The notes beneath the pieces were generated by a model. The model had not been told where the DNA came from and did no database searches. It was given only the letters and a program-made list of their open reading frames with translations. A stretch of DNA of 64,000 nucleotides from a virus, in IMG/VR virus record IMGVR_UViG_3300023213_000238. The stretch is one strand, 5' to 3'. The position numbers and the translations under genes were made by a program. Below, piece by piece: positions 1-64,000 of the stretch; the first letter of the stretch is position 1, and each line of letters opens with the position of its first letter.

Positions 1-1347
1 GATGAACCAGCTCGAGGCCTTCAGGTGATCTCCGGCATCTGACAGGGCTCTTGCACCGTAGAACCAGGCATCAGGTAGATCGGACCGCCAGTAGATCGCG
101 CTCTGATAGGCCTCCATCGCATCGCTCAAGAATCCGTTCTCAGCTGCATATTCGCCGGCTTTCAGAAGAGCGCGGTAGCGATCGATCGGTACCGTGGCGG
201 CCTCGTACATGGCCCGGATGAATTCTTCGCGTCGAGCCGGATTGATGAGTCGGCTGTAGCTCTCGAGGTAAAAGCACCCGCGGCTATTGCGCTCGCCGGC
301 CTCGTACTTCTTCAGGAGCACATCCCAGTGCCGTTGGATAGCGAAGCTCGCACCAGCCGCATTCCAGCGACGATGATGAACGAAGACCAGCGAGGACAAG
401 TAGGCCTGACGCACCGGATGCTTCGGATCTTTCGGAACGCAAACTTCGTGCGCAGCCTCGGCCCAGTGCCAGCTTTGATCGAAATTGCGAATGAAGCGCT
501 CGCGATCTTGCCATTCGATCGCATTGCCCTCGACATCTGGATGGTAGAGGTAGGGGCACCAGATCGCTTCGATCTCTGGATGTTCCTTTTCGAACCATCG
601 AAGCAAATCCTCGAGCTTCTTGGGCTCCGTATCGATCGAATGCTTACCGTCGACGGGCGGTCCGGGCTTATTGCGTTCGTTTTTCACTACGATGCGTTCG
701 GCTTCCTTCGGATCCGGAAGGATATCATCTGCGTCGATCCAGGCCCGCCAGGTGCCGTGTGCTAGCTCGAAAGAACGCTGCCTTGCTGTTGCCGCATCAT
801 CGAACCAGACCATCTCCTCGTTCCAGTCACCGCGAGGGCCGCGGTAGACCTCGAAGACGTCCGCATAGATCTCTGCAATCCGGACCGTCGAATCTCCGTA
901 AGATATGCCCGTCAGGATAATCGGAGGGATGTCGAGCGCCTTCAGTACACGATCTCTCGTTTCGTCCCAAAGCGAATGCGGAATTTTGCTACCATCGTGA
1001 TTACGAACACGCAGTCGCACGGCCGGAACGACAATATCTTTGAATTCGTCAGCCGGATCCTCCTGCCACGTAAGCGTGGCCCATTCTTCAATGAAGAGCA
1101 ATTTCAACTGAACGCTCTCGAGCCGTGTCGCGACCTCTTCGTCAGAAATTTTCTCTGACCAAGCGTCCTTGGCAATTTCAATGTCGAGCCCAGAATCGTC
1201 GCTCGAGCATGTATCGACGCACACGATCTCTGCATCGGGCGCGCGATCGCGAATCGACTTCAGCGTGTACTCGAGCGTCGAGGCGCAGTTTCGGATGATG
1301 AGGCAGAAGGACAGATAGGGAGGTTGATCGGGAGAGAGCCGTTTCAT
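1..1347 (-). CDS. GT2 family glycosyltransferase with C-terminal TPR-like helices; runs off the left window edge
   Basis: Translated by hand, absent from ORF track because no stop is in the window: MKRLSPDQPPYLSFCLIIRN..VCVDTCSSD..FDDAATARQRSFELAHGTWRAWIDADD (GT-A fold, DxD motif), then helical repeats. Confidence 0.85.
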   Translation of the reverse strand, partial: MKRLSPDQPPYLSFCLIIRNCASTLEYTLKSIRDRAPDAEIVCVDTCSSDDSGLDIEIAKDAWSEKISDEEVATRLESVQLKLLFIEEWATLTWQEDPADEFKDIVVPAVRLRVRNHDGSKIPHSLWDETRDRVLKALDIPPIILTGISYGDSTVRIAEIYADVFEVYRGPRGDWNEEMVWFDDAATARQRSFELAHGTWRAWIDADDILPDPKEAERIVVKNERNKPGPPVDGKHSIDTEPKKLEDLLRWFEKEHPEIEAIWCPYLYHPDVEGNAIEWQDRERFIRNFDQSWHWAEAAHEVCVPKDPKHPVRQAYLSSLVFVHHRRWNAAGASFAIQRHWDVLLKKYEAGERNSRGCFYLESYSRLINPARREEFIRAMYEAATVPIDRYRALLKAGEYAAENGFLSDAMEAYQSAIYWRSDLPDAWFYGARALSDAGDHLKASSWFI

Positions 1348-1476
1348 TGAACGGGACCCTATCGGGGCCAGCCGCTCAAGTCAAAAAATCAACCGCGCTT
1401 GTGAACAAGAGCAAGAACCGTCAGAAGACGGATCAGCTCATCGCGTTGGCGCTCCCCCTCCCTCATTGGAGCGCGC

Positions 1477-1782
1477 TTACTGGATGAGCGAGTGGACGAA
1501 CACCACGTAGAGGTCGAACGCCGTGACCGGCGAAGAACCGGATCCGATGGTCGGCATCTGCACGCCGACGGTCGCCAAAGAGCCGTTGGCGCCCTCTGCG
1601 AACAGCTGCGTCGCATTGGATTGCCGCTCCATCGATCGCAGCTGAGGTAGAACCAGCTGCGGCGCGAGACCGGCAGAGCCCGGAACCGCAACGGAGTGAG
1701 GAAACGTGGTGGTCAGAGGAGCCGCGTTACCAGCGAAGGTCGAGAGCCGGTTGACGTTCCAGAAGGTTCCAAGCAAAGCCAT
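1477..1782 (-). CDS. hypothetical small beta-rich protein
   Basis: 101-aa ORF with AAGGAG SD upstream of the ATG. Confidence 0.6.
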   Translation of the reverse strand: MALLGTFWNVNRLSTFAGNAAPLTTTFPHSVAVPGSAGLAPQLVLPQLRSMERQSNATQLFAEGANGSLATVGVQMPTIGSGSSPVTAFDLYVVFVHSLIQ

Positions 1783-1847
1783 GATGTGAACTCCTTAAAA
1801 GCAAAAGCCTTTGCTTGGAGGGTAACGAGCCGGCGACATGGCGGAAA

Positions 1848-1883
1848 AGTTGACTTGAGTTTTCTGACGCAATAACGTCAACT
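1848..1883 (+). promoter_or_regulatory. sigma70-like promoter with overlapping palindromic operator
   Basis: TTGACT(1850-1855)-17nt-TAACGT(1873-1878); inverted repeats AGTTGAC..GTCAACT and TGACG-N6-CGTCA (1865-1880); directly upstream of an RHH gene. Confidence 0.55.
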
Positions 1884-1897
1884 CCGCCGGGGAGCCT

Positions 1898-2804: not shown

Positions 2805-3136
2805 GGCCCCGGCAGCATAGCGAGAGAGCACTCGTACGGCTCAAGCTCGGCGTCGCGGAAGAGTTCACCGCACCAAAAGATGCAGTTTTTGCGATCGTCC
2901 CGAGTCATGTACTCATGGTGACAGATCGTGAGACACGCGAGGCTACATTCAACGGAAAGGCCCTCGGTCAGCTCGAGCCGCTCGGAGGACTGTGCGAGTT
3001 TCGTTTTTTGTTCGGCAGCCTCGGCGCCGGCTCGCGAGCAGCCTGTCAAGAGTAGCCACGCCACGAACAGTCCCAGCGCTATGATGAAGAGCCAGGCACC
3101 GAGATCCTTTTTTGGTTGCTGATCAGCCGCGTTCAT
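2801..3136 (-). CDS. putative lipoprotein, Cys-rich
   Basis: Hydrophobic stretch ending in lipobox LLLTG-C; ATGA overlap at 3133-3136. Confidence 0.6.
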   Translation of the reverse strand: MNAADQQPKKDLGAWLFIIALGLFVAWLLLTGCSRAGAEAAEQKTKLAQSSERLELTEGLSVECSLACLTICHHEYMTRDDRKNCIFWCGELFRDAELEPYECSLAMLPGP

Positions 3137-3603
3137 CGACGTCTCCCGAAAAGTAGATATGCTACCACGCCGGCAGCCAGTGCAACGGCGATCGAGATTC
3201 CAGCCGGAGCGACCCATTTGCGCCAGCCAGGGATCTCCACGTGGCGCTTATCCTTCGGCACGTTCCAGTCGCCGCCCCAGGTGAAGCCGGCTGCCCTAGC
3301 CCAGTCGCCGAGCACATCCCAGGCCGGATCACTATCCGACGCAACATTGCCGGCCGCGTCGAGAATGTCGAAATCAATCGCCGAGGAGAGCGGTGCAGTC
3401 GTATGTGCAGATGTCTGAACACTGGTGACGATCGGACCGGGGCGCGTTCGTCCAGAAGCGAAGAGCCAGAGCTGTCGAGCCTGATCTCGAGCGACCTCTG
3501 CGATACGGAAGTTGTACGGGAAACGGGCTGCCAGATCTCGAGCGAAGCTTGCTAGCTCGGGCCGAGCCTGCGAGAGAAGCTCTGCGCCGGAAGTGAGACC
3601 CAT
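3133..3603 (-). CDS. M15 family (L-Ala-D-Glu type) peptidoglycan peptidase with C-terminal TM anchor
   Basis: RDQARQ..GRTRPGPIVT..SAH..AIDF..WGGDW..DKRHVE motifs; C-terminal hydrophobic helix followed by RRR. Confidence 0.85.
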   Translation of the reverse strand: MGLTSGAELLSQARPELASFARDLAARFPYNFRIAEVARDQARQLWLFASGRTRPGPIVTSVQTSAHTTAPLSSAIDFDILDAAGNVASDSDPAWDVLGDWARAAGFTWGGDWNVPKDKRHVEIPGWRKWVAPAGISIAVALAAGVVAYLLFGRRR

Positions 3604-3604
3604 C

Positions 3605-4198
3605 TCATGCCGCCCCACCCTGCGCGATCGACTGAACTCGCACGAGGACTGACTTGATATTCGAGAAATAGGTATCGGCCGGCTGGGTGTAGTAACCGCC
3701 CTGGCGTAGCGGATAGACGAATGTCGGATCTCCCTGCGCGAGTAGTGAATAGGCAGATCCGAAGCGAGGTTGCTGGATGAACTTCAGATAGTCCGCCACG
3801 CTATCCTCGAGATTGTAGTAGGCACGGAAACGCTGGGTGATCGGCCGGCAGTTGCCCGCGGCATCGCACTCCGTGTCTCCACCTGTAACGGTCGGCCCCG
3901 AATCATTGGCGCCTCTCGTGATGTTGAATGCGTTGTTCCCTTGCCGGTACGCGGTCGCATTGCCCCAGCCAGACTCATAGGCGCCATGTGCAACAAGGAG
4001 CAGTTCGCCAGGGCCAGTGAAGCCGAGATTCCTGACAGCATTGCGCATCCTCGCGACAAAGTCTGCTCTCGAGCCTGGAGTATTACTGCTCACATCCTGC
4101 TTGGGCAGACCGCCGCCGTTTCCGCCGGCAAATGCCTTCGAGGCGAGGAAAAAGAATGCGAGACCTGCGAGGATCGGAATGAGGGGGCTCACGTCCAC
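3605..4198 (-). CDS. GH73 glucosaminidase/muramidase (FlgJ-like) with N-terminal TM anchor
   Basis: AHGAYESGWG, NNAFNI, FRAY..LEDSVADY, GGYYT motifs. Confidence 0.85.
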   Translation of the reverse strand: MDVSPLIPILAGLAFFFLASKAFAGGNGGGLPKQDVSSNTPGSRADFVARMRNAVRNLGFTGPGELLLVAHGAYESGWGNATAYRQGNNAFNITRGANDSGPTVTGGDTECDAAGNCRPITQRFRAYYNLEDSVADYLKFIQQPRFGSAYSLLAQGDPTFVYPLRQGGYYTQPADTYFSNIKSVLVRVQSIAQGGAA

Positions 4199-5277
4199 CG
4201 TCTAATCTTGCGACCGCGCCGAATTGCTTGAGTGAGCGCGTAGTCAGCATCGTCGTAATCAGCAAAGGCACCGAAAACTTTCGCCTGTGCTTCCCAGTCC
4301 GCCACCTCTTGTGCGGTCGCTCCTCGCCGCAGCAATTCATCGTGCAGCTGTGGAATAATTTTCGGCCAATCGGTGCCGATAATTTGAGGACCGTTTTGGA
4401 TCACCAATCGAGCAAGACGTCTCACTTCACTCGGATCCAGCGTCGCGATGGGAGTTGCTGCCGTCACTGGAGCGCCGGTGCCGTCTGCCTGTTTGATACA
4501 CGCTCCTGTACCTTGTTGGCCCGCGCCCCACGGCGCATCTGGATCACGCACCACTCGAATTGAACTGCTGAGAATATCTGGAAGGGTATAGCCTCGATTG
4601 CATGGCGGTGGCGTACTATCCCAGTCAGCCTCGGTGGCTGCGAGCACGTCTGGCGGATAGTGATTGTCCTTCGTCATTAGATCGGTCTTCGGGATCTTCT
4701 TCCAGACGCCACCGCCAAAGATTCCGATCACTGGTGTGCCGACCCAGATGTAGGTCGTGAAATTGGTGAGAGCATCTTTGAGAATAACTTTGTCGTGTGG
4801 ATTGAGACCTCGCCAGATATTGCGCAGTTCTTCATCTGTACTTCGTTTTGCCTTTGTAATTAGATCGGTGATGACGAAACCAGCGACGACGACTGCACCA
4901 GCAATAGCAAGCGGTACCACAGCGCTACCGACCAACGGCGCGAGCGCGCTGATGCCTTTACCGGCTCCGAGAGCCGCAGTGCCGACCTTGAGCGCATCGG
5001 TGGCGAGATTTGATTTTGATGTAGACGGGGTTGCGGCAGGCTGCGCAGCATTCGCGGCTGGTTGTACCGCGCCCTGTTTAGCCTGCGCCTGCTGCTGTGC
5101 TGGCCCGGCACCAGGCTTTATTTTACCGAGCAGAAAGCCGACGACGCCGCCCACCACGCCGCCGAGAGGACCGGCGGCCAGCGCTCCAATACCTCCGCCG
5201 GCAAGCGCAGTTACGAGACCGCTCTTCGGCTTTTCTGCCGGCGCGGCTGCGGCTGCTGAGAAATCATTGAAGATCAT
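4189..5277 (-). CDS. putative virion membrane protein with glycine-zipper segments
   Basis: MIFNDFSA leader; LAGGGIGALAAGPLGGVVGGVVGFLLG plus a second hydrophobic segment. Confidence 0.6.
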   Translation of the reverse strand: MIFNDFSAAAAAPAEKPKSGLVTALAGGGIGALAAGPLGGVVGGVVGFLLGKIKPGAGPAQQQAQAKQGAVQPAANAAQPAATPSTSKSNLATDALKVGTAALGAGKGISALAPLVGSAVVPLAIAGAVVVAGFVITDLITKAKRSTDEELRNIWRGLNPHDKVILKDALTNFTTYIWVGTPVIGIFGGGVWKKIPKTDLMTKDNHYPPDVLAATEADWDSTPPPCNRGYTLPDILSSSIRVVRDPDAPWGAGQQGTGACIKQADGTGAPVTAATPIATLDPSEVRRLARLVIQNGPQIIGTDWPKIIPQLHDELLRRGATAQEVADWEAQAKVFGAFADYDDADYALTQAIRRGRKIRRWT

Positions 5278-5642
5278 CGCTTCTCTCCCAACGTCACACC
5301 CAGATTATGCAAAGCATGGGCTAGAAATGCTCCGAAGAAGCCATATTGCCGGTAGGCGGCCTCGTAGAGCAATCCACCCGTAGTCGCATCCAGGACCCTA
5401 AAGGAATTGAAGCTACGAGGCAGGCCTTTGACTCTGTGTGCTAGAGCAAATGGCACCGCGGTTGAACCGATCGGCACGTCTCCGGCCGAAAGGAACGGAA
5501 GCACGCGGTAACGAAATTCCTCTTCGAGCGGCGCCGACAAGATCTCACGCGTGAAGTTCGGTTTGCTGGCCGGCATCCCGAGACGTTTCGCTGCAAGCGC
5601 CTTGAAATAGCCAAAAGCTGCGCTGGCAAGGATCGGATTCAC
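5274..5642 (-). CDS. minimal CPBP (CAAX protease type II/Abi) family intramembrane metalloprotease
   Basis: Motifs APLEEEFRYR, FALAH, AHALHN in canonical order within 122 aa. Confidence 0.75.
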   Translation of the reverse strand: MNPILASAAFGYFKALAAKRLGMPASKPNFTREILSAPLEEEFRYRVLPFLSAGDVPIGSTAVPFALAHRVKGLPRSFNSFRVLDATTGGLLYEAAYRQYGFFGAFLAHALHNLGVTLGEKR

Positions 5643-6223
5643 TTGCCGGCCTTCTTTTTCCCGAGAAAGTATCCGGCCGCTCCGCCAGCGGCGGCCCCGA
5701 CCGGACCTCCGACCAAAAAACCAGTACCGGCACCGATCAACGCCGGCCAGAGTGAACCCTTCGCAGGAACTTTTGGCTGAACCTTCGGCTGATCGATGAT
5801 GGCAGGAGGCGGAGCTGAAATAGGGACGGGAGCACTCATTTCTGGCGCGGATTCGACTTCTTCTCCGCCGCCTTCGCTAGCGGAGGCGAGCAACTCCGTA
5901 GAAACCCCCTGTGACTCTTGTGTAGCCGGCTGCATAACGACCGGCTGTTCGATAGGAGCGGCAGCGGCTGCTTCTTTAGCCAATTTCGTGCTGTAGGCTT
6001 CCTGAATCATCTGAACCGGCGCCATGACCGGTGCTGACGGCGACGGCCTAGCAGGCTGCGGAAGAACAAACGCGCGACCGGGCGGAGGCGTCGCCAGCCC
6101 CGACGGCGGTCTCACGACCAGCGCGGGGAGAGGCGGCAACCACCAGGCAGTTACCGGAGACGCGGCTCTGATACGTGGTCGCGGCACTGGAAAGCCGATA
6201 GCTGAGTAGTCGCTCAAGATCAT
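5639..6223 (-). CDS. Pro/Ala-rich protein with C-terminal glycine-zipper TM
   Basis: Start moved to MILSDYSA (ATGA overlap at 6220-6223); LIGAGTGFLVGGPVGAAAGGAAGYFLGKKK. Confidence 0.6.
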   Translation of the reverse strand: MILSDYSAIGFPVPRPRIRAASPVTAWWLPPLPALVVRPPSGLATPPPGRAFVLPQPARPSPSAPVMAPVQMIQEAYSTKLAKEAAAAAPIEQPVVMQPATQESQGVSTELLASASEGGGEEVESAPEMSAPVPISAPPPAIIDQPKVQPKVPAKGSLWPALIGAGTGFLVGGPVGAAAGGAAGYFLGKKKAGK

Positions 6224-6420
6224 GGTGAAGGAATCTGTGGCGGCGATTTGAAAAAGCAATTTGCGATGACAGCACCGGCAGCGGCACCAAGTATGCCGCG
6301 GAACAAGATCAATCCGACAACGGCTCCGGCGATAGCAGGGTTTCGCTTTACCGTCTCTACGATGCTAGACGGCTCTACCGCGCCGAACGTTCCACAGGAG
6401 TAGCAGTCTCTGATCACCAT
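6220..6420 (-). CDS. small membrane protein
   Basis: AIAGAVVGLILFRGILGAAAGAVIA hairpin-like TM; coupled to neighbours. Confidence 0.55.
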   Translation of the reverse strand: MVIRDCYSCGTFGAVEPSSIVETVKRNPAIAGAVVGLILFRGILGAAAGAVIANCFFKSPPQIPSP

Positions 6421-6421
6421 C

Positions 6422-6889
6422 TTATCTCCTGAAAGCCGAGATTACGTACAGCAGGCCAAGCACTCCTGCGATGATCGCGAAACTAGGTGCCGCGCCAGCA
6501 GCCTTCTCTGCCACAGTCGCAACAGTTACAGCCGATGATTTGAGAGCGCCCGAAACCGCCGTCCATTGAGATCCCTCGACTGAAATCCCAAGTTGGTACT
6601 GCATATCCCTGCGCAACTCATCCCCGTAGTCCACCCAGTCCTGCCATGAGTAGGGAACACCGCTAGCCTTTTGGCCCTGTTCTGCCTGTGACCGAATCGC
6701 TGTTGCCCAGTTGTCGATGCGATCACCGAGGTCTTTGTAGGCTTTTCGCACTGCGGCGGCTTGCGCAGTCAGATCGAATGGGCCGAGCGTCGCGAGACCT
6801 CGAGCCCATGCAAGGCGCAGCTGTTGAATCAGATCGTCGGCTTGCGCCGCGATCGAACCGCCAGTCTGGCCATAGTGAGAAAAGATCAT
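6422..6889 (-). CDS. putative virion membrane protein, helical, C-terminal TM
   Basis: MIFSHYGQ leader; FAIIAGVLGLLYVISAFRR tail. Confidence 0.6.
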   Translation of the reverse strand: MIFSHYGQTGGSIAAQADDLIQQLRLAWARGLATLGPFDLTAQAAAVRKAYKDLGDRIDNWATAIRSQAEQGQKASGVPYSWQDWVDYGDELRRDMQYQLGISVEGSQWTAVSGALKSSAVTVATVAEKAAGAAPSFAIIAGVLGLLYVISAFRR

Positions 6890-6896
6890 TGGTCCT

Positions 6897-7502
6897 CTAC
6901 ATCGCCGAGGTCATCAGCTGTTCCATCGACGTTCCGCCTCCGCCGCCGCCACCCACACCTATCGGAGCTTCAGGCATCATCATCACAGGAGTTGCTACCA
7001 ACGGAGCCTCGGGCGTTGCTCCGTGCGGGCGGCCTCGACCAATCAAACCGCCGGCCAGAGCACCGACCAACGCGCCGATCGGACCTCCGAAAAGGAACCC
7101 GACGCCTGCACCACCTGCTGCGCCTCCAACGGCACCGGCAGCCGGACGCGGTCGCGGAGCTGAAATGCCGGGCCGACGGCCAATCGGTGAAAACGGCATG
7201 ATTGGCAAAATCGACCGTTCTGCGTGAACAACCCCAGCAGGCGACGCCATCCCCACCATCGCCTTTGCTAGAATCGCTTCTTTTTTCTTCTCCTCGACAT
7301 GAACGGCGCTCAAACGCTTTTCCGCGTAGCTCGCGACCTCTTTGATAGCCTGGCTTCGAGCGTCGCCTGGAGGAGCCCTCTCGAACGATTTTACGATCCG
7401 ATCAAGACTCGATTGATCCCCCGAGGTGTTGTAAGCATCAGCTTCGTGAATTCTCGACGCAGGTTTACTTAGTGCAGTGATTTGCCCGTAATAAGCGATC
7501 AT
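6897..7502 (-). CDS. putative virion membrane protein with glycine zipper
   Basis: MIAYYGQ leader; GGAAGGAGVGFLFGGPIGALVGALAGGLIG. Confidence 0.6.
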   Translation of the reverse strand: MIAYYGQITALSKPASRIHEADAYNTSGDQSSLDRIVKSFERAPPGDARSQAIKEVASYAEKRLSAVHVEEKKKEAILAKAMVGMASPAGVVHAERSILPIMPFSPIGRRPGISAPRPRPAAGAVGGAAGGAGVGFLFGGPIGALVGALAGGLIGRGRPHGATPEAPLVATPVMMMPEAPIGVGGGGGGGTSMEQLMTSAM

Positions 7503-7681
7503 TTTCTACTCCTCAAATGAAGATCTGCTGTGCAGATCTCTCCGTTCCTCAGTTGTTCTGTTACGCGATTGAGTTGCTGTGGCAGGTGTTCGAGGTGGTT
7601 TTCGATCTGGAGCTTCAGATCCGCCGTGATGATCCGAGGCTTCGTCTTGATGCCGAAATACTTGAGTAGTAGCTGGATCAT
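7499..7681 (-). CDS. small hypothetical protein (lysis cassette candidate)
   Basis: Translationally coupled 60-aa ORF downstream of the SLT gene. Confidence 0.45.
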   Translation of the reverse strand: MIQLLLKYFGIKTKPRIITADLKLQIENHLEHLPQQLNRVTEQLRNGEICTADLHLRSRK

Positions 7682-7902
7682 CGCCTACCTCGCTTCTTTG
7701 CCGCTGATGCGGCAGCTTGAACCATCGCAGTCAACTCCTGCGCGATGTGAACGGATTTGAGCGCGGTCGCAAGATGCGCCTTGTTCGCTCGTTGCAACGC
7801 GACCCACTGCGCTACGTTCGCGAGCACCGACAAGGTCAGAAACGCTGCCCACGGCTTCGCACTCAAATAGTCTCCGAGCTGCTTGACTAGCTCTATGTTC
7901 AT
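7678..7902 (-). CDS. holin-like small membrane protein
   Basis: One TM (WAAFLTLSVLANVAQWVAL), basic C-terminus, immediately after the lytic transglycosylase. Confidence 0.4.
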   Translation of the reverse strand: MNIELVKQLGDYLSAKPWAAFLTLSVLANVAQWVALQRANKAHLATALKSVHIAQELTAMVQAAASAAKKRGRR

Positions 7903-7908
7903 GATGGG

Positions 7909-8490
7909 TCAATCCGCTCCATCCTCAAGAACTGGCACTGCCAGGTATTGGTCACGACGCTTGAGCACATCACTAACGTAATCGTGGCCGGTCGTTACGG
8001 CATCGAGAGCTGCAATCAAGGCCTTCCGCTGCGCCGCGACGTACTCGGCAGGATCAGTCGAGCCAGTGACCGTGCTCGCTATCTGCTTCGCAGCGTGGAG
8101 AGCAGTCTCCATCTTGCAGTTGTAGGCCGCGATCGCGATGAAGAGATTGCCGCCGCACTCGATCAAGTTGGTACGGAGCTTCTCGGCGGCATAGAGCGCC
8201 TGGAATGCAGGCTCGTGGCAGATCAGCGAACCATCAGGGAATTCAGCAGCTAGAAAGCTTGCGTGAAAGCGCTTGTCGATCTGGAAAAGGCCGAATCCGT
8301 TTCCGTTATCGCCCCAGCCGGCCGGATCGTACTGCGGAACGAGGTACTTTCCAGCGCCAGATTCGCGACTCATCAGCGCGGCGACAAGGCGAGGTTCGTG
8401 ACGGTACATTATGCTTGCACCGTAGATCTCCTCAGCGTACTTCGCCAAGTCTTGCGGAAGCTGCGCTCGCAATTTTTCGAGATCGTTCAT
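7909..8490 (-). CDS. lytic transglycosylase (SLT/lysozyme-like), likely endolysin
   Basis: [25 protein letters not shown] motifs. Confidence 0.85.
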
Positions 8491-8493
8491 ACG

Positions 8494-9516
8494 TCACTGC
8501 CAGTCGCCCTCGATATCCACATTCCCTAGATAGGTTGCCTGCGACGTCGCGCAGGTCGAACTGAGAGTCGTATAGCTCAGGCTCGCCGAGGCCGCGTAAA
8601 CGCAGCCGGTACCGCCGGCACCCGCGCAAGTAGTACGAAGGTTCGTATTGGCTGTTTCTCCGGCGCACGCTTGAGCGCAGTTGCAAAGATTGGCGCCGTC
8701 TGTGACCTGCCAGGTATGAGTTCCGGCACCGACAGCCGCAACGGAAACGCGACCTTTAACAGCATTGACGGTGAAAGCGCGAGCCGGAAGAACGCCACCG
8801 CCATAGGTCTGAGCCCCGGCCGGGATCGCTGCGTTCACGAAGAATGAACTCAACGTGAACGGCGTAGTGCTCCTGATGTAGCCGTCAAACGTGCCCGTGA
8901 TTTGATTGGTCCCGTTGTTCTGGTAGGCAAACAACAGCCCGGCACCGCTCATCACGACCCCATTCGTGTTGAACGTATGAGCAGTACCGGTTGCAGCTGG
9001 TGTTGCCTGGATAAACAAAGCAGCACCCGAATTGCCTACCGTACCATTCACGTCCAACGCGAAACTGCCTGCGGCAGCACGGCCTATGCCGAGACCACCC
9101 GCGCCGGGACCCAGCTGCATCCTTTGCGTTGGCGTAAAGGTATTACCAATCGTGAGACCCGTATCCGAGAACCAGCGCAAAGATCCATCAAAGGCAGAAT
9201 TCCAGATCGATGCTAAGTTCGTCTTTGCCACCCATGCGGCGCCATTCCAAGCAGCGCCGCCTGACAAGAACAGCTCGGCCGGCGCTTCTGACATAATGAA
9301 GCCGCCATCATCCACCGTTGAATTGGAGCGAAGGTGGATTTGAGTCTGATTGGTCCCGCTGCGGATGTCTAGCTGATAGGCAGGTACACCGCCCCAGTCA
9401 CCGCCCGAAATGTTTCCCTTCCCAAATTGCTGCGCCGCCAGAGCAAGCATCGGCATAACCGACACGATGCCGGCGAGCGTCAGCGCGATCAGTTTATGCC
9501 ATCCGAATCGTTTCAT
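8494..9516 (-). CDS. spike/fibre-like beta-rich protein with signal-peptide-like N-terminus and Cys-rich C-domain
   Basis: Start moved to MKRFGWHKLIALTLAG..ALA-AQQ; G/T/A-rich body; CNCAQAC..C..C..C tail. Confidence 0.55.
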   Translation of the reverse strand: MKRFGWHKLIALTLAGIVSVMPMLALAAQQFGKGNISGGDWGGVPAYQLDIRSGTNQTQIHLRSNSTVDDGGFIMSEAPAELFLSGGAAWNGAAWVAKTNLASIWNSAFDGSLRWFSDTGLTIGNTFTPTQRMQLGPGAGGLGIGRAAAGSFALDVNGTVGNSGAALFIQATPAATGTAHTFNTNGVVMSGAGLLFAYQNNGTNQITGTFDGYIRSTTPFTLSSFFVNAAIPAGAQTYGGGVLPARAFTVNAVKGRVSVAAVGAGTHTWQVTDGANLCNCAQACAGETANTNLRTTCAGAGGTGCVYAASASLSYTTLSSTCATSQATYLGNVDIEGDWQ

Positions 9517-9518
9517 AG

Positions 9519-9704
9519 CTAGCAAGCCTCCGGACACGCTGAAGAGCAGAATCCACAAGGAGAAGACGGTTGAGTCGGTCGAACAGCAGGCTGATCTTGC
9601 TGCGGCGGGGGCGGACTCTGCTGCGCAAGTTTCATGGCACCGAACGTCAAAGCTCCGCCGATCGCGATCGCACCAGCAACTTTCTTGACCGTGTCACTGT
9701 TCAT
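9519..9704 (-). CDS. small membrane-anchored Pro/Cys-rich protein
   Basis: N-terminal hydrophobic helix; CGFCSSACPEAC tail; coupled to neighbours. Confidence 0.5.
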   Translation of the reverse strand: MNSDTVKKVAGAIAIGGALTFGAMKLAQQSPPPPQQDQPAVRPTQPSSPCGFCSSACPEAC

Positions 9705-52468: not shown

Positions 52469-53179
52469 ATGAGCAACGTCGATCAGCACAAGACGTGGTC
52501 ACAGACGGTCAGCGGGCTCGCTGTCTATCCGCTCAATCTCGATCCGGACTTGATCGATCTCCATGATATCGCCCACCACACTGCGCGGATCTGTCGCTTC
52601 CTCGGTGGCGTTGACGTCGACCTCTACAGCGTCGCCGAACATTGCGTTCGCGTCTCCTGGAGAGCCGAAGAGTTGACTCAAAAGAGATGGAAAGGCCAGG
52701 GTCCGTTTGTTGACGGCGCACGGATCGTCGAGCACATCAACTATAACGCTCGCTGGGGCCTCCTCCACGATGCGGCCGAATACGTACTCGGCGACATCGC
52801 GCGGCCGATTAAGGTTCAGCCCGGCTTCGATCCCTACCGGCTCATCTATGAACCGGATGTTCTAAAGAAGATCGTTGAGCGGTATGGCCTCGAGTGGCAG
52901 ATGCCTTCCTGTGTCCACCAGGCCGACTATGAGCTTTGCTCGACGGAAGCTCTCGAGCTGAAGGCGCCAGTGCTGCGCGCATGGCGCGAGCGAATGGTCG
53001 GAGTCGAAAAACCGCTACCGAAAAGTAGCTTCATCCGCCAAAATATGGGATGGTCCGCACGCGTGGCGGAGCGGCGGTACCTCGAAAGGTTCTTTCAACT
53101 CTGGCCAAAAGAAACCTATCGATCGGTGCGAGCACGAAAGGGTTCGCGACGGAGAAGCAAATGCAAGATCATGAAGTGA
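52469..53179 (+). CDS. HD-domain 5'-deoxynucleotidase (YfbR/DatZ-like)
   Basis: IAHH..ICRF.G, YSVAEHC, LLHDAAE..GDI..P.K, ADY. Confidence 0.85.
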   Translation: MSNVDQHKTWSQTVSGLAVYPLNLDPDLIDLHDIAHHTARICRFLGGVDVDLYSVAEHCVRVSWRAEELTQKRWKGQGPFVDGARIVEHINYNARWGLLHDAAEYVLGDIARPIKVQPGFDPYRLIYEPDVLKKIVERYGLEWQMPSCVHQADYELCSTEALELKAPVLRAWRERMVGVEKPLPKSSFIRQNMGWSARVAERRYLERFFQLWPKETYRSVRARKGSRRRSKCKIMK

Positions 53180-56044: not shown

Positions 56045-56231
56045 GTTCGCGCATCCAGGTCCTCAAGTCAGTTTTCATCTCTCGCCTACCGAATTGAGGC
56101 TTCTCAGTCAGTACCGAAAGAGGTTGGAGATCTACTTGCACAGGCGCGTCTCTCGCGAAGCGGCACTGAACGATCTTATTCGCTTTGGAAGCCGCGTTCT
56201 GATAGATATGAAGCTGATCCATGACCCATGA
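55947..56231 (+). CDS. basic protein with RHH-like C-terminus
   Basis: GAGGAGG SD; VSFHLSPTELRLL..SREAALNDLIR. Confidence 0.55.
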   Translation: MSGAIRFLTFNRRTKSHHKRKRRNRRWKSDAYRFAHPGPQVSFHLSPTELRLLSQYRKRLEIYLHRRVSREAALNDLIRFGSRVLIDMKLIHDP

Positions 56232-58306
56232 TCGTCGTCCCGACCCTCCACCCAGCTGCGATCCTCCGCGGTGAGGGCGAAGATAAAGGTCTCGTTCGCT
56301 TCCGTCTAACCGTCTCGGGAGACGTTCACCGCGCAATCGAGTACCTCCGGCGCAAGCCTCAGTGGGATGAGGCGGTCATCTGGGAGCGGGATGAACACGG
56401 CCGGCTCAAGAACCTCTTCCCAACGCTCGAGGAAGTCCGCCAGTTCTGCGTCGGAGCTTGGCGCGGGGAGATCTACGCCGATATCGAGACGACGGGCGAG
56501 GAGCCGCTAAACTGCAAGATCCTCTGCATCGGGATGTGCGATCAGAACGGCCGCGCGATCTGCGTCCCATTCCTGAAGAAGGGCGGAGCACCCTACTGGA
56601 AGCCCGAGGAAGAGAAGCAGGTAGTCTCTTGGATCGGTTGGCTCTTCAAGGATATAGAAACGCTGAAGGTCGCGCATAACGGCGTCAACTTCGATGGCGT
56701 AGTTCTGACTCCGTTCGGAATGCCGATTCTCGGCCCCGTCGACGATACGATGCAAATGTCGCACGTCCAAGACGGCGAGATGCCGCATAAGCTCGCGTTT
56801 GTTGGATCGACGCGGACCGAGGTTCCTTACTACAAGGACGATGTCAAGGGCAAAGCAGCGTGGATCGACATTGATGAGGTGGATCTGCGCAGCTACAACT
56901 TGCGAGATTGCCTGACTACGCGAGCGATCCGAAAGCCGCTCCTTGATAAGCTCCGCGAACTCGGTCTCGGGGGTCTCTACCATGAGGAGATGCAGGTCTG
57001 CCGCATCATGGCGCGAGCGAGCTTGCGCGGGATCACGGTCGATCGAAAGAAACGCGACGAGAACTTCCAGTTCTACCGCACGGCGGCCGATAAGGCGCTC
57101 GGGTCGCTATGCGCGATCGCCGAGAATCCAGAATTCAATCCGCGCTCGCATCCGCAACTCGTCGAGGTCCTGTTCGATCGGCTGAAATTCCCGGTCGTCA
57201 GACGGTCGAAAAAGACTGAAGGTCCGTCAACGGACAAGAACGCGATGGTGCTCCTGGCAATTCACGCAGAGCGCCCTGAGCAGGTCCAGTTCTTAGTCAA
57301 TCTGATCTCCTACCGCAAGAACGACAAGATGGCGACGTGGATCGACTCGATGCCGATTCTGCCCGACGGGCGCGTGCATGCCCAGTGGAATCACCTGCCG
57401 GTTACCGGGCGCCTCTCCAGCTCGCCCAACATGCAGAACTGGAACAAGAAGATCAAGTCGATGTTCATGGCCGGTCCCGGCATGCGGATCGTTTCGGTTG
57501 ACCTCTCGCAGGCCGAGCTGCGCGCCGAGGCCTACTTCGCATTCGATCAAGAATTTCTCCGCATGTACCGGCTCGGCGTCAACGCGCATACTGCGAACAC
57601 GACATTGCTCTTTGGCGTCCGCTGCGCGAATCCGAACGATACCAACCCGGCAACCGAGGAGTATTTGCGGGAGGCGTGTCGCAAGTACCGCAGCTGCGAA
57701 TTAGAATCGCTGCCGCTCGCAGTGAGCAAGGACAAGTGGAAGCAGTTCAGAACGCTGGCCAAGATCGCGATCTTCACTTGGTTCTATGGCGGACTGCCGC
57801 AGACGCAGCTCCAACAACTAGGCAGCAAACGGGATCCAGATACAGATGAGCTACTCTTCCCGAAGCTGACCCTGCGTGACATGGAATCGTTTAACGCAAT
57901 GGCGGCGCTTCTACACCCGGACATCGTAGCGTATCAGGATCGGCTCGTTGCACAGGTGAAAGGCCAGGGCTATTACCGCTGTCCTCTCTCAGGCCGAATG
58001 ATCTGGTTCCGTGCCGGATTCGGCCGTAACAAGATTCTTGACTATCCGAATCAGATGCTGGTAGCTTCCCGCGTGAACAAAGGCATGATTGCGATCGATG
58101 AGAAACTACGGCGGTACTGCCCTGGTGCGGTCATTGTCCAGCAGGTCCACGACTGCCTAAACGTCGAGACGCCAGAGGAGCATATCAAGACGGTCGGAGA
58201 GATCCTCTATGAGGAGTTCCAGCGGCCGTTCGCGCTGCCTGGATTCGAACAGGCGCTGCTTCCCGCCGAGCCGGCAACGAACGGGATCTACTTCCATGAG
58301 GTCTAG
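56228..58306 (+). CDS. family A DNA polymerase with 3'-5' exonuclease and the C-terminal fragment of the UDG domain
   Basis: MIVVPTLHPAAILR; ExoI DIETTG, ExoII HNGVNFD, ExoIII YNLRD; TGRLSS.PNMQN, DLSQAELR, R..AK..F..YG, VHD. Confidence 0.92.
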   Translation: MIVVPTLHPAAILRGEGEDKGLVRFRLTVSGDVHRAIEYLRRKPQWDEAVIWERDEHGRLKNLFPTLEEVRQFCVGAWRGEIYADIETTGEEPLNCKILCIGMCDQNGRAICVPFLKKGGAPYWKPEEEKQVVSWIGWLFKDIETLKVAHNGVNFDGVVLTPFGMPILGPVDDTMQMSHVQDGEMPHKLAFVGSTRTEVPYYKDDVKGKAAWIDIDEVDLRSYNLRDCLTTRAIRKPLLDKLRELGLGGLYHEEMQVCRIMARASLRGITVDRKKRDENFQFYRTAADKALGSLCAIAENPEFNPRSHPQLVEVLFDRLKFPVVRRSKKTEGPSTDKNAMVLLAIHAERPEQVQFLVNLISYRKNDKMATWIDSMPILPDGRVHAQWNHLPVTGRLSSSPNMQNWNKKIKSMFMAGPGMRIVSVDLSQAELRAEAYFAFDQEFLRMYRLGVNAHTANTTLLFGVRCANPNDTNPATEEYLREACRKYRSCELESLPLAVSKDKWKQFRTLAKIAIFTWFYGGLPQTQLQQLGSKRDPDTDELLFPKLTLRDMESFNAMAALLHPDIVAYQDRLVAQVKGQGYYRCPLSGRMIWFRAGFGRNKILDYPNQMLVASRVNKGMIAIDEKLRRYCPGAVIVQQVHDCLNVETPEEHIKTVGEILYEEFQRPFALPGFEQALLPAEPATNGIYFHEV

Positions 58307-60056: not shown

Positions 60057-60857
60057 TCAGTATTCGTTCAAGAACTGCTCGATATCGCGATGAGTCAGGT
60101 GAACGTACCGCAGCGTGGTCTGCATGCTGCGATGGCGCGCGGCCTTCTGAATGTCGAAAGCGTCGGCACCACGCCGGGCCAGCTTCGTAACGAAGGCGTG
60201 CCGAAGCATGTGGGGTCGCAATGACACATCGAGGCGCGCCTTTCGGCCGAGCTGGCGGATCATTCGATGCAGTAGATGGTACTGCGTAATGTAGCTCTTC
60301 GGCGAGAGGATTTCGCCGGCAACTGACCAGGCCAGTCCCTTCATGAGGATTATCCCGCGGCCGGGGGCTCTGGGCGCTTCGAGAAGCTCTTCAAGCAGCC
60401 TGAGGCACTTTGTCACCGTGACGAGTTCCTCTCTGTTCCCCTTGCCGAGCACCACCAGTTCGCCCGTTTTGAGCGCCCGCTGGACAGCTCGCCGAGTCAG
60501 CTTGAGCAACTCCTCGGCTCGAAGACCGATCGCCAATGGCAATAGTGCGAGTGCTCTTTTCCCGGCGGGAAGCCCGCGCGCCGCTCTCTCGTAGGCCGCT
60601 AGCTCCTCATCGCTCGGTATTTGGAGCACTCGCGAAATGGTCTTGGTCGCCGGCAATGCGCGGTCGATCCAGGTGCCGTCCGACCCATCCTCGCGGTGGG
60701 CTCGAGCTACAGCTGCGCGAAGGGCCGCCTTACAGCTTTCAGGCCAGTCACGGACAGAACGGGTTACCTGGCCAAAAGGCGGAGTTGTACGGCCGAAAGC
60801 CCTCTCCAGCATCCGGCCGTATTGCTGGACCGTTCTCGGTGCCAGCGCGCGAAGCAT
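60057..60857 (-). CDS. tyrosine recombinase/integrase (XerC/D-like)
   Basis: GLRAEE (R), VLGKG (K), HMLRH (HxxR), HRSMQTTLRY (H..Y). Confidence 0.92.
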   Translation of the reverse strand: MLRALAPRTVQQYGRMLERAFGRTTPPFGQVTRSVRDWPESCKAALRAAVARAHREDGSDGTWIDRALPATKTISRVLQIPSDEELAAYERAARGLPAGKRALALLPLAIGLRAEELLKLTRRAVQRALKTGELVVLGKGNREELVTVTKCLRLLEELLEAPRAPGRGIILMKGLAWSVAGEILSPKSYITQYHLLHRMIRQLGRKARLDVSLRPHMLRHAFVTKLARRGADAFDIQKAARHRSMQTTLRYVHLTHRDIEQFLNEY

Positions 60858-60860: not shown

Positions 60861-61343
60861 CTATCGCCGCCTGCGACGGCGCCCCGAGCTACGACGACGA
60901 CCCCCTCGACGTTTCCCTCCCCCTCCCCCACTGAGAACGAGATAGGCACCGCCCGCGATCGCGGCAGCCGCAGCAAGACCAAGACCAGCAGCGCTAGGAC
61001 CAGGCGCAGAAGGGCCTGCTGGAGCGGCAGCAGCCGGCCTCCTGGCGAAGATCGTCATCGGCTCCATCGTTATAGTGGGTGCCGGCGGCGCCGAGTCCGT
61101 AGGGCCAAATAGCTGCTCTGGCGTCATACCGGCCGCTGCAATTATCTTCTGGAGAGCCGCAGCGGTTGCAGGACCGTAGATCCCGTCTGAAGTGAGGCCG
61201 GCGCCCGTCTGAAAATTCCTGACCGCGGAAGCCGTTGCTGGCCCATACTGACCATCGACACCAGTCGGGTAACCCGCCGTATTCAACATCTGCTGTAGAG
61301 CCGACACCTCGGGACCGCTGGAACCCTGTCGTAGTAGTGCCAT
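60861..61343 (-). CDS. peptidoglycan-binding domain protein with TM and Arg-rich tail
   Basis: LRQGSSGPEVSALQQML..VDGQYGPAT..AVRNFQ..DGIYGPAT; TM; RRSSGRRRRRR. Confidence 0.85.
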   Translation of the reverse strand: MALLRQGSSGPEVSALQQMLNTAGYPTGVDGQYGPATASAVRNFQTGAGLTSDGIYGPATAAALQKIIAAAGMTPEQLFGPTDSAPPAPTITMEPMTIFARRPAAAAPAGPSAPGPSAAGLGLAAAAAIAGGAYLVLSGGGGGKRRGGRRRSSGRRRRRR

Positions 61344-61496
61344 GCCAATAGGCTTAATGACAAAGCCTCGGCAATGCACGAAAACGCCGGCCTTGGCGCC
61401 TCACCTAGCGACCCCCGGACCGGCGCAGAGGGGTGAGAGGAAAACCGGCAGACGATCGGAAGCTGAAGCTATGCAACCGCCTACCGGAGCGCCGAT

Positions 61497-63098
61497 TTAC
61501 GAGGGACGAACCTCTGCGGGCGGAGCCGGCGGCTGCCGCCAGGTCGGATCGGGGATGGCAAGGCGAGTCACCGTTGGTGGTGATATTACCACGCGAGACG
61601 CTCTCCAGGCCTTGAACTCCTTCCAATACCCGCGCAGCGCATCGATCGCCCACGCCGTGCAGACCAGGCTGAACGCGATCTCTCCATAGAGACTGATTCC
61701 TTTGATGATGTTCATGGTTTCACCCTTCGGTTTTGAGCTTGAAACGGAGCGGGACGATAGATACCGGTCCGAGCGGAAACGGTTGTTCCTGCGGTTCCTT
61801 GTCGAGGTTCTTGATGCGGGGGAACAGTCTGGAGTCGTTATAGCAGGCCTCCCCCATGTGGATCAGCGCGGCCGAGATGGCTCGGCGTGCTGCCTCTGAT
61901 CTCGTAGAGCCGCTCGTGGTAATCCCGTTTGCGTACTTGTTGCCACTGATGCGCGCTACCCAAGGTACCGGTGCGCGCTCTTCTAGCTTCCATGTTTCCA
62001 GTTGCAGTGTGATCATCGTCGCCTCGCTTTCCTTTTCGCGGCAACCTCGGCCTTGACAACCTTCTCTAACACGAATGCCGCAAGCCAAGAGAGTGGTACG
62101 GAGTACACACGTCGCCGCCGCCGTGGGCGGACCAAGAACAGGCCGAGCTTCCGGTCAATCGTTACGGTAGCTTCCCGCTCCCCGTCAAATCCGCCATGAA
62201 CTCGGAAGTTTGCGAACCGGCGTTGCTTTTTTTGACCCGCCGGTTTTTCTGTGCCATCCTCCACAATGCGGGGGGATCCATTCATAGATTCAGTCTTTGA
62301 CTGCCTGGCGCCCATCACCTTGTCGGCGTAGGCGATCAGGTCTTCAACCGAGTCGCTCATCGCTGTGCCCACTCCTTCTTATTGAGAACGCGAACGACCT
62401 CGCGCACAGCGTCATCGAACGCTGCTGTTGGGTACGAGCCGGTGCCGATCGTCAGCCCGTTATCGGTCATGATGGAGCAGTCCCATGCCACGCCGTCGAA
62501 CGAGAATTCGATCGAATGTACGATCTCATCTTTGATGGAGATCTTCATCGGGTTGCCCTCGGTAGGTTGTTCGGCTTCCGGCGCTTCTTGAAGCGGCCGA
62601 GCAGCTCGTTGGCATCGAAGCGCGGGCCAAGCCGGTCGAACGAAGCCAGCTCGATCAGAGCATCCTGGAGCGCATACGTTGAGATCGTGCTGCGCATCCA
62701 GCGAGATGCCGGAATCGCCAGCTTCGCGATCTTCTCCAACGCCTCCAGGTACTGCTCACTGACCAAGATCTGACGATTCTCCTTCATGAGATCACTCCTT
62801 TGAAGGCCTCGGGTAGTTCCTTCGCGAGTCTGGCACGGAAATCGAGATAGTAACCTGTCCAAACCGAGAGGGCGATGTTCACACAGCGCTTCGTTTCATC
62901 GAGACGGGAGGCGTTCAACTTTTGGATTTCGCCAACGTGCTCAGCGTAGGCGCGCACGTACTGAGCGCGGAGTTCCTCGCCGCGCATCATGAGATTGCAG
63001 AACTTGTTGTTCTCTTCTTGCAACGCCTTGATTCGTTGCTCGAGTTCCATGACGAGATTTCTCAACTCGATGTTGGCTGCGTCTAAATGTTCGATCAC
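61497..63098 (-). CDS. six small coupled hypothetical genes (61497-61715, 61720-62016, 62013-62360, 62357-62548, 62545-62787, 62784-63098)
   Basis: Starts set by ATGA/GTGA overlaps; early-region-like. Confidence 0.5.
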
Positions 63099-63733
63099 GA
63101 TCCGCTCCTTTTCGCCTGGAACCGCCTGAGTACGGCCAAGGACCTCTCCGCGCTCTGCCGGCGGGTGGTAAGCGACTTGATCCTTTTGGTCAGCCGCGCG
63201 ATCTGCTCTTCGCGCTTGGCGATCTTCACCTCGATCGGTGGCGGCTTGGCGGCGAGCCGGACCTTCTCTTCGACGTGTTCCTTCTTTAGCGCGAGGCCAT
63301 GCGCGATCTCGCCGAGGTTCCATCGCTGCTTGACGATGTACCGGCAGGCACGATCGACCAGGCGAGCATGGAACTTATCGTGAGGGCGATGCGGTGGTGG
63401 GAGCGGCGTGAGCTGGTCCTGCGGGCGGCCCAGTGAGATCTGGGTCTGCCGGATCGCTTGGATCCGGCGCTCTTCGTCATGGCGACCATCCCAGAAGTGC
63501 GCGAACTCGTGAGCGACCAGGAGCCAGTTGAGGCAATCGACGTTCAGCAGGATTCGATTGCTGAAGCCCTTGCTGATGCGGCTACCGGATGTGAATTGAA
63601 CTGCGCAGTCTGGCGTGCCGAAGTGGCGCACCAGCTTCGCGACCGCAATTAACGCTTCTTCCGGCGTCAGCTTTGTCGCGTAGAGCTGCGGCCAACGTTT
63701 GGCTTCGTTGTCGTAGTATTTCAGGTGAGGCAT
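63095..63733 (-). CDS. SprT/WLM-like metalloprotease candidate with C-terminal coiled coil
   Basis: VAHEFAH (HExxH) and PHDKFH. Confidence 0.55.
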   Translation of the reverse strand: MPHLKYYDNEAKRWPQLYATKLTPEEALIAVAKLVRHFGTPDCAVQFTSGSRISKGFSNRILLNVDCLNWLLVAHEFAHFWDGRHDEERRIQAIRQTQISLGRPQDQLTPLPPPHRPHDKFHARLVDRACRYIVKQRWNLGEIAHGLALKKEHVEEKVRLAAKPPPIEVKIAKREEQIARLTKRIKSLTTRRQSAERSLAVLRRFQAKRSGS

Positions 63734-63778
63734 GTGCTTTGCTCCTTTGAAGTGGGTTTTCCAGTCCCACTGTGATTG

Positions 63779-63994
63779 CTACGTTACCACAATCTCCTTT
63801 GGAAGTCCAATCGCCCTCAGTCCGGCCTCCGTAATCTCCATCGGGCGATCCCACCGATTCAAGATGCCCCAGAGCCTTTCATGCTCGCTCTGTTCGATGT
63901 AGGTAGCGAAGCCGTACTTCGCGAGGCGCTGTTTCGTTGGCCGGCCGGTTCGAGGCTGGCGGCCGGCGGCGAGGTCTTTGAGAGCTTGCTTCAT
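63779..63994 (-). CDS. small basic hypothetical protein
   Basis: 71-aa ORF at the window edge; the true start may lie outside the window. Confidence 0.4.
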   Translation of the reverse strand: MKQALKDLAAGRQPRTGRPTKQRLAKYGFATYIEQSEHERLWGILNRWDRPMEITEAGLRAIGLPKEIVVT

Positions 63995-64000
63995 CGTTCT

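Follow-up and report, generated by a model that had tools for sequence, protein, structure and literature searches.

The stretch of DNA analysed here (the window) comprises 64,000 nucleotides of the IMG/VR virus record IMGVR_UViG_3300023213_000238, and its genes lie in three blocks, on the minus strand from ~37.8 kb down to position 1, on the plus strand from 37.6 to 58.3 kb, and on the minus strand again from 58.4 to 64 kb. Open reading frames (ORFs) of at least 90 amino acids (aa) cover 88% of it. A Shine-Dalgarno-like motif precedes 44% of the starts (20% at random positions), the G+C content is 55-62%, and no tRNA gene was found in the window. Central in the first of these blocks are three paralogous genes of a double jelly-roll (DJR) family, adjoining the gene for a single jelly-roll (SJR) protein. 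The window probably represents most of the genome (~74 kb) of an uncultured bacterial virus that would be tailless and icosahedral and would belong to the PRD1/adenovirus lineage (Varidnaviria-like).

The contig holding the window, traced by exact-protein look-ups, is 74,334 bp long and runs from -6874 to 67460 in window coordinates, the window being 86% of the genome. Two contigs of the Joint Genome Institute (JGI; sample 3300023212; 38,389 and 36,072 bp) match it with 100% identity and overlap each other by 127 bp, and from them both flanks (10.3 kb outside the window) were recovered. Their overlap, at window 31389-31515, is probably an assembly-graph branch from strain variation or a repeat. 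An earlier reading of the window's letters (the sequence-only reading) had described an element of at least 64 kb with dense viral-type genes; the gene density holds, and the lower bound on size can be replaced by the 74,334 bp of the contig. No direct or inverted terminal repeats were found on the 74,334-bp contig. As the contig ends fall at different distances from the SJR gene in different assemblies, the genomes of these viruses, some 74-76 kb long, are probably circular or circularly permuted.

The jelly-roll genes and their relatives

The four jelly-roll genes are the following.

16788-17942, minus strand: DJR paralogue p1, 384 aa as listed; matches the profile of alignment A4 at E 4e-101 and aligns end to end with p2
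15814-16791, minus strand: DJR paralogue p2, 325 aa; the paralogue that was folded
14814-15821, minus strand: DJR paralogue p3, 335 aa; matches profile A4 at E 4e-87 (alignments A2/A4); gene call from the JGI record
18060-18767, minus strand: SJR protein, 235 aa; best conserved among the virion genes, its product a candidate for the penton or for a minor capsid protein

The three DJR proteins are mutually homologous, with two similar halves in each. The AlphaFold2 model of p2 (pLDDT 88.6, from a 146-sequence alignment) consists of two jelly-rolls. Foldseek gave 358 PDB matches to it at E<=1e-3, and the best 50 of the 358 are all viral DJR major capsid proteins (MCPs), with PRD1 P3 (8.4e-11), PR772, PBCV-1, STIV (1.3e-9) and SGIV foremost; FLiP and PM2 join PRD1 P3, STIV and PBCV-1 among the viruses whose capsid proteins it matches in structure. 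A shape search of the ESM Atlas found a Sputnik-type MCP cluster at TM 0.58. Both p1 and p3 belong to the family of p2 at E 1e-87 to 1e-101, and a profile search of 1.84 billion representative proteins recovered 978 representatives of this family at 50% clustering. The DJR MCP is the signature of Bamfordvirae-type viruses (the PRD1/adenovirus lineage), and it is present here. The capsid shell is most likely made by the three DJR paralogues.

The first ~58 aa of p1 are a Pro/Arg-rich N-terminal extension, and its true start is uncertain. Several p1 orthologues have such an extension, of 40-60 aa, and p2 and p3 are without it.

Across relatives the DJR paralogues are 23-37% identical. In a maximum-likelihood tree they cluster by gene position, not by genome (support for the p2 clade is 99/95), with three label changes against a minimum of two, a count as low being reached in 0 of 200 shuffles. 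Since the paralogues group in this way, the triplication is older than the separation of these viruses, and all three copies have been retained. Prediction of a p1+p2+p3 complex scored 0.56 against 0.17 for the best control, for which the verdict of the tool was 'weak support'; when the tool was calibrated, 58 of 80 solved complexes attained the mark, against 2 of 110 mismatched pairs, but scores of 0.60 or less comprised only 7 of the 80 solved complexes and both of the mismatches. In the predicted contacts the first barrel of one chain meets the second barrel of its neighbour, an arrangement that DJR trimers have.

The AlphaFold2 model of the 235-aa protein (pLDDT 90, pTM 0.87, from a 70-sequence alignment) is a jelly-roll beta-sandwich, the fold for which a check had been proposed. 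Its Foldseek matches are weak, and nearly all are to viral jelly-roll capsid proteins. Its homologues form 105 clusters (38-87% identity), several of them on contigs of 68-82 kb. No relation between the SJR and DJR families and that of the 326-aa protein encoded after the DJR genes was shown by hhalign. The SJR gene is near the DJR genes, as a penton gene would be, and its product most likely forms the pentons.

The sequence-only reading had made the 235-aa protein its main capsid candidate and its beta-rich paralogous neighbours a further target for a structure search. The protein and its neighbours are real and conserved and the jelly-roll was foreseen, but it is the neighbours that are now better supported as the shell. 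A shell of the 235-aa protein, with the DJR paralogues as vertex, turret or outer-layer proteins, is unlikely. It would account for conservation of the SJR gene well beyond that of any other virion gene (52-87% identity, the DJR paralogues having 23-37%), its best structural matches include the vertical single jelly-roll MCPs of SPV1, HHIV-2, P23-77 (VP17) and SH1, and fast-evolving paralogues would suit exposed, host-interacting positions. However, shells of the Helvetiavirae type need two different SJR MCPs where one SJR family is recognised here, and in every solved DJR virus the DJR protein makes the facets and the SJR protein the pentons.

The same arrangement of genes recurs in seven relatives, namely five metagenome contigs (L005, L006 and L008-L010), a 12-kb contig of a metagenome-assembled genome (MAG; L014) and an IMG/VR genome, IMGVR_UViG_3300012359_000002 (G001). 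In order, the module consists of a 520-570-aa coiled-coil/low-complexity protein, a ~190-200-aa Cys/His/Asp protein, small proteins, the SJR protein, three DJR proteins and a ~310-330-aa protein. The SJR gene followed by three DJR genes, with the protease-like (Cys/His/Asp) gene upstream, is found in all seven. The counterpart of the 326-aa protein follows the DJR genes in 6 of the 7, L014 ending before its position (this contig is too short for the first and the last genes of the module). G001 is 75,450 bp long with a 123-bp direct terminal repeat (CheckV 100%), and its SJR protein is 58% identical to that of the window. Its layout is likewise divergent, the strand opposite the capsid module encoding a SNF2 helicase and a UDG-PolA fusion. 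Two IMG/VR loci were found by alignment query. The contigs of all 105 SJR relatives are at most 82.5 kb, the related large ones being 68-82 kb, and the G+C content of relatives is 59-70%.

Cellular DJR enzymes score close to viral MCPs (VIA), and this bears on the possibility of a plasmid or integrative element, with DJR proteins that are cellular glycosidase/PNGase-like enzymes or surface proteins and a membrane operon that is a secretion or surface apparatus. Many of the operon proteins do have signal peptides or membrane anchors, and an SLT transglycosylase, a HerA/AAA_10-like ATPase and an integrase are also known on conjugative elements. Against such an element stand the exclusively viral best 50 of the 358 structural matches and the lack of any detectable catalytic or carbohydrate-binding family in p1-p3 (Pfam). 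Its size is tightly conserved (68-82 kb) across independent assemblies, none of which is inside a larger chromosome contig, and the pairing of SJR and DJR genes with the protease-like gene upstream is a signature of virus morphogenesis. Relaxase, VirB4, VirD4, VirB8-10 and other type IV secretion families were not detected (Pfam/PHROG), and a conjugative element was rejected on this ground. A non-viral origin is very improbable.

Tailed-phage genes and the packaging ATPase

Pfam was applied to all ORFs above ~130 aa and PHROG to the 50 largest or structural ones, with JGI precomputed Pfam assignments for the ends. No terminase, portal, HK97 capsid, tail tube, sheath or baseplate family scored above cut-off in the 74.3-kb contig, and the genes of the 10.3-kb flanks include no terminase, portal or HK97 capsid gene. 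A six-frame hidden Markov model (HMM) search of G001 found none of TerL_ATPase (PF03354), Terminase_6C (PF17289), Phage_portal (PF04860) and Phage_capsid (PF05065) at E<=1, and a single 11.6-bit P-loop match to Terminase_6N (PF03237). The absence of tailed-phage hallmark genes, which had been claimed for the window, is thereby extended to both flanks, where a search for them had been advised, and to a complete relative. No HK97 fold was seen in the two capsid-position proteins folded (SJR and p2), both being jelly-rolls. Neither megablast of window 1-25000 nor tblastn of the SJR and DJR proteins gave a match to GenBank phages; an exact 40-mer of the window had no match in IMG/VR, and a search of sequencing runs listed none. 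The virion operon is without PHROG match save three that are below threshold, which implies that it has no cultured relative.

A highly diverged member of the Caudoviricetes, with hallmark proteins beyond Pfam/PHROG detection and jelly-rolls that are decoration, cement or receptor-binding accessories, is quite unlikely. It would be in keeping with a replication module (PolA with UDG, SNF2 helicase, AAA_24, primase-helicase) typical of tailed phages, with the automatic taxonomy that labels related clusters Uroviricota, and with a weak tape-measure-like match in 13837-14817; the single-chain AlphaFold2 models, moreover, are those of the SJR protein and p2, among conserved proteins that also include those of 573, 326 and 536 aa. 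But the only ATPases among ORFs of at least 400 aa are the SNF2 helicase and a non-conserved HerA-like protein, neither of which has a TerL nuclease domain, and the conserved 573-aa protein is coiled-coil and low-complexity, not portal-like. Three conserved full-length DJR proteins of PRD1/STIV-level similarity are not known as tailed-phage accessories, and their genes, central in the late operon and adjoining the SJR gene, make up with it the classic major/minor capsid pair. Neither the 74.3-kb contig nor the 75.4-kb relative has a match to hallmark genes even at E<=1, save the 11.6-bit one.

The HerA-like protein is the window's only candidate for a packaging ATPase.

49734-51563, plus strand: HerA/FtsK-superfamily ATPase, 609 aa; PF05872 9e-07, PF01935 1e-06, phrog_2666 2.7e-12

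It matches HerA structures at E 3e-10 over the P-loop core, and its match to phrog_2666, labelled 'terminase', is confined to the HerA-type P-loop region. Besides it, the genome encodes no P-loop proteins other than AAA_24 and AAA_25 of the replication module. The family of the HerA-like protein has 262 matches at E<=0.001, and among the best 120 of the 262 the only large contigs bearing an SJR gene are that of the window and a closely related one of 74,213 bp. Other members are encoded beside integrases, within elements integrated in MAGs of Anaerolineales and Archangium, and no SJR or DJR gene is within 10 kb of the homologues there. G001 has no Pox_A32 or HerA/DUF87 match in the six-frame search and no phmmer match to the window ATPase. 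As a conserved packaging motor this protein was rejected, being absent from the complete relative and widespread in unrelated elements, and it is treated as an accessory gene.

The integrated homologues (L011, L012 and L013) may represent a different family of temperate elements. The Anaerolineales element also exists as a free contig of 53,216 bp, and it has TIR-domain genes beside the ATPase.

Assembly and affinities

Beyond the jelly-roll genes, the virion operon and its lysis genes include the following, with the fourth peptidoglycan-directed protein encoded far from the rest.

29957-31678, minus strand: candidate scaffold or capsid size ruler, 573 aa; coiled-coil middle, Ala/Pro-rich low-complexity stretches
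21140-21760, minus strand: candidate transglutaminase/papain-like maturation protease, 206 aa; invariant Cys, His and Asp
20661-21182, 20133-20471, 19267-19863 and 18871-19248, minus strand: small membrane-anchored and Arg-rich basic proteins, between the protease-like and SJR genes
13837-14817, minus strand: conserved virion protein, 326 aa, following the three DJR genes; 36-53% identity in relatives
8494-12083, minus strand: three beta-rich, Cys-rich proteins (354, 536 and 224 aa) with N-terminal signal-like segments; candidate spike/receptor-binding proteins
7909-8490, minus strand: SLT-type lytic transglycosylase, within the virion operon (PF01464, weak precomputed match)
4189-7502, minus strand: run of glycine-zipper or C-terminally anchored membrane proteins (hydrophobicity scan)
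5274-5642, minus strand: CPBP/Rce1-like protein, 122 aa (weak precomputed Pfam match)
3605-4198, minus strand: glucosaminidase (PF01832, precomputed) with N-terminal anchor; lysis or entry enzyme
3133-3618, minus strand: M15 peptidase (PF13539, precomputed) with C-terminal anchor; lysis or entry enzyme
60861-61379: endolysin-type domain protein

The invariant residues of the protease-like protein are D-C-D 128-130, H161 and D181 (alignment A3). It is 41-49% identical in relatives, its gene is present in L014 and G001, and it has no sequence match in Pfam, PHROG or the PDB (the last including a profile search of the family). The 573-aa protein (26-38% identity in relatives, no family match) has a poorly folded ESM Atlas model (pLDDT 0.50), and the profile of the 326-aa protein resembles that of neither the DJR nor the SJR family. 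No family match (Pfam, PHROG) was obtained for the small proteins within 18871-21182. The Cys-rich spike candidates diverge faster than core genes, and a relative has a pectate-lyase-fold protein in the equivalent region.

One of the small proteins (20133-20471, minus strand; 112 aa) is extremely Arg/His-rich and could be a DNA-condensing core protein, a possible role that is relevant because the lineage is without a conserved packaging ATPase. Many virion proteins encoded within 4189-21760 (minus strand) bear a short aromatic-Gly motif (MIFNDF.., HYGQ, YYGQ, SDYG, DNFG, YGAF), which may, downstream of the Cys-His-Asp protease-like gene as it is, be a cleavage signal.

A hydrophobic membrane segment was detected in about 17 of the ORFs within 2.8-22 kb, in many cases as a C-terminal anchor or glycine-zipper helix. 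The structural operon is thus rich in small transmembrane proteins, as the sequence-only reading had it, and an internal lipid membrane is a reasonable expectation from the membrane-anchored proteins within it.

The order of genes suggests how such a virus might be built. The late operon, on the minus strand, would first supply the coiled-coil scaffold or size ruler, the Cys-His-Asp protease-like enzyme and the small basic and membrane proteins, next the capsid proteins and then the membrane-anchored proteins to populate an internal lipid vesicle, and last the spikes (Cys-rich and secreted), the transglycosylase with which the virion would enter, and the anchored muramidase and peptidase for lysis. 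The shell would be made of trimeric, pseudo-hexameric capsomers of the anciently triplicated p1-p3, with the adjacent SJR protein as pentons, and replication would be by the virus's own PolA-based module and not by the protein-primed PolB of tectiviruses. As to entry of the DNA, co-assembly around condensed DNA would be as likely as motor-driven packaging, given that no conserved packaging ATPase is found in the lineage.

Several points weigh against a tailless virus of this kind. No conserved FtsK/HerA/A32 packaging ATPase was found, and the HerA-like gene is 30 kb from the capsid genes, in the replication block. The 326-aa protein has a sub-threshold tape-measure-like match (PF10145 at 18.9 bits, cut-off 33.2; phrog_1272 at E 2e-4). 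Membrane-protein density is lower in G001 (10 of 42 ORFs in a crude scan). The complex prediction cannot tell hetero- from homotrimers and may echo memory of solved DJR trimers, and all the structural roles are read from predicted folds together with gene context. The window contig is without terminal overlap, and its completeness is judged from relatives.

With the tailless DJR virus as the favoured reading, Tectiviridae (PRD1, PR772) are alike in the adjacent SJR protein (penton P31), in many small membrane proteins and in having no tail, portal or terminase genes. The lytic transglycosylase of the virion operon is presumably like PRD1 P7. Tectiviruses differ in genome size (15 kb against ~74 kb; PMC6260650), in having one DJR protein where there are three paralogues here, in protein-primed PolB where there is a PolA module, and in their P9-type ATPase, which has no conserved counterpart here. 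Their genomes are linear with inverted terminal repeats, of which there are none here (the relative G001 has a direct terminal repeat), and sequence similarity is undetectable by Pfam, PHROG and tblastn.

Turriviridae (STIV) and the bacterial 'STIV group' have MCPs of similar size (345 aa; ~325 aa here). STIV has a packaging ATPase. It differs in its archaeal host, 18-kb genome and single MCP (PMC6260650) from the present virus with its bacterial host, ~74 kb and three paralogues. In the Helvetiavirae (Sphaerolipoviridae/Matsushitaviridae: P23-77, SH1, HHIV-2), two vertical SJR MCPs are encoded beside a packaging ATPase, and this combination is not found here. Of the architectures with which the window had been compared, the tailless PRD1/STIV-like one, with its DJR, therefore stands, but the P23-77/SH1-like one, with two single jelly-rolls, does not.

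SSIP-1 is a tailless membrane-containing bacterial virus whose circular genome and capsid are unusually large (44 kbp, T=49, ~100 nm; PMC6260650), as would be expected of the present one. It has more than one type of major capsid protein (PMC6356626) and, as here, almost no sequence similarity to anything else. Its MCP fold is listed as 'single jelly roll?', the genome here is about 70% larger, and no similarity between the two is detectable (tblastn against GenBank phages, PHROG). SSIP-1 is the largest cultured membrane-containing tailless phage (PMC6260650), to be set beside 68-82 kb for the present lineage.

The metagenomic prokaryotic DJR viruses (the PM2, Odin, Bam35/Toil, STIV and FLiP groups of Yutin et al. 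2018) share the DJR MCP signature and variable replication modules, and the Odin and FLiP groups are also without a packaging ATPase (PMC6260650). Their genomes are 'roughly, between 7 and 18 kb' (PMC5894146), whereas the genomes here are of 68-82 kb, with the MCP in three paralogues and some 100 genes or more. The 'large DJR viruses' of ANME-1 were considered as a precedent and set aside, the DJR ones there being ~10 kb and those of 70-80 kb head-tailed (PMC9894754). No bacterial DJR virus of a size near 70 kb came up in a full-text search of the literature. By comparison with PRD1 (15 kb), PM2 (10 kb), STIV (18 kb) and SSIP-1 (44 kb; PMC6260650), the jelly-roll architecture in bacteria would not be confined to small genomes, those of this lineage being four to five times the published size for bacterial DJR viruses. 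That the window belongs to a much larger tailless lineage with its own replication module, as had been proposed, is supported by the ~74-kb size and the PolA-based module.

Large eukaryotic DJR viruses (Nucleocytoviricota, for example PBCV-1, and virophages) have in common with it multiple MCP paralogues, a large genome and their own replication genes. Here, in contrast, there are a sigma-70 factor, four peptidoglycan-directed enzymes, Shine-Dalgarno motifs and operons, PolA and not PolB, and neither an A32 ATPase nor a transcription apparatus of the eukaryotic-virus type. The lineage bears on the debate over the origin of large DJR viruses and would serve in bacteria as a model for scale-up of a DJR capsid, through several paralogues of the MCP and perhaps a protein that acts as size ruler. 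How a shell comes to enclose 74 kb of DNA when no motor is conserved is a further question that it poses. It appears common in metagenomes (978 DJR representatives at 50% identity, more than 100 SJR clusters), and the labelling of such contigs as Uroviricota points to a blind spot of virus-classification pipelines. More speculatively, these viruses could be a widespread, undescribed bacterial group of high rank, Varidnaviria-like, with genomes of 70-82 kb, a shell of heterotrimers of the three anciently diverged DJR paralogues, a Cys-His-Asp maturation protease, basic core proteins and motorless assembly around condensed DNA, their enlargement being independent of that of eukaryotic giant viruses; taken as a whole this proposal is possible but doubtful.

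Replication, host and accessory genes

The genes outside the virion operon, including those recovered from the left flank, are as follows.

36893-58306, both strands: replication and nucleotide-metabolism module, with AAA_25, SNF2, MT-A70 methylase, AAA_24, UDG, MazZ-like, HD and PolA proteins
36893-37810, minus strand: AAA_25 helicase-like protein (Pfam/PHROG)
38649-40562: SNF2 helicase (Pfam/PHROG)
56228-58306: PolA (PF00476 2.4e-32, phrog_17 1.8e-81)
60057-60857, minus strand: tyrosine recombinase/integrase, 266 aa (PF00589, precomputed)
-6874 to 0 (L003 1-6874), left flank: sigma-70-family factor of 258 aa, thioredoxin-like protein, DUF7768
Left flank into window 1-1347: glycosyltransferase and SAM-methyltransferase fusion, 1225 aa, the window holding its C-terminal part

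The right flank has small ORFs only, without recognisable family. The PolA, helicases, integrase and lysins which the sequence-only reading had listed are all present.

The sigma-70 factor, the peptidoglycan hydrolases, the Shine-Dalgarno motifs and the operon structure are sequence features that indicate a bacterial host. The only taxonomic label is that of the Steroidobacteraceae MAG bin with the 12-kb contig L014, the single match in 185,579 species genomes. The hint of a Myxococcota-like host has no support, as the labels are Steroidobacteraceae for this relative, and Archangium/Anaerolineales for the unrelated ATPase family only. The scan of the 185,579 species genomes found no provirus, and no relative is inside a contig of more than 82.5 kb. 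Of the epithet 'temperate', the integrase is confirmed, in two members (the window and G001), but no integrated relative was found; lysogeny is possible in view of the integrase in these two.

The family-4 UDG (46789-47358) and PolA are separate in the window, 8.9 kb apart, whereas in G001 they are one 899-aa ORF (31396-34095), in agreement with a separate earlier remark that a UDG-PolA fusion had been split. In the AAA_25 ORF (36893-38062, minus strand) the Walker A motif GEPGAGKT is upstream of the first in-frame ATG/GTG/TTG, and the gene may have a non-canonical start, be reached by frameshifting from upstream, or be in decay. Relatives have 757-773-aa Prim-Pol/VapE fusions at its position.

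The MazZ-like dATP/dGTP diphosphohydrolase domain (48385-48981; PF18909, 7.7e-22) and the HD 5'-deoxynucleotidase (52469-53179; phrog_318, 1.8e-35) suggest nucleotide-pool editing, perhaps with a modified DNA base. A Z-genome pathway was considered, MazZ-like and HD enzymes being present, and was rejected, a PurZ-like family not being detected.

Within 25020-28309 (minus strand) a RadC/JAB protein (PF04002, 3.9e-28) adjoins very acidic proteins of 128, 265 and 518 aa. Their sole match in five relatives is a short one, to the 265-aa protein, elsewhere in L006, and they are possible anti-defence accessory genes.

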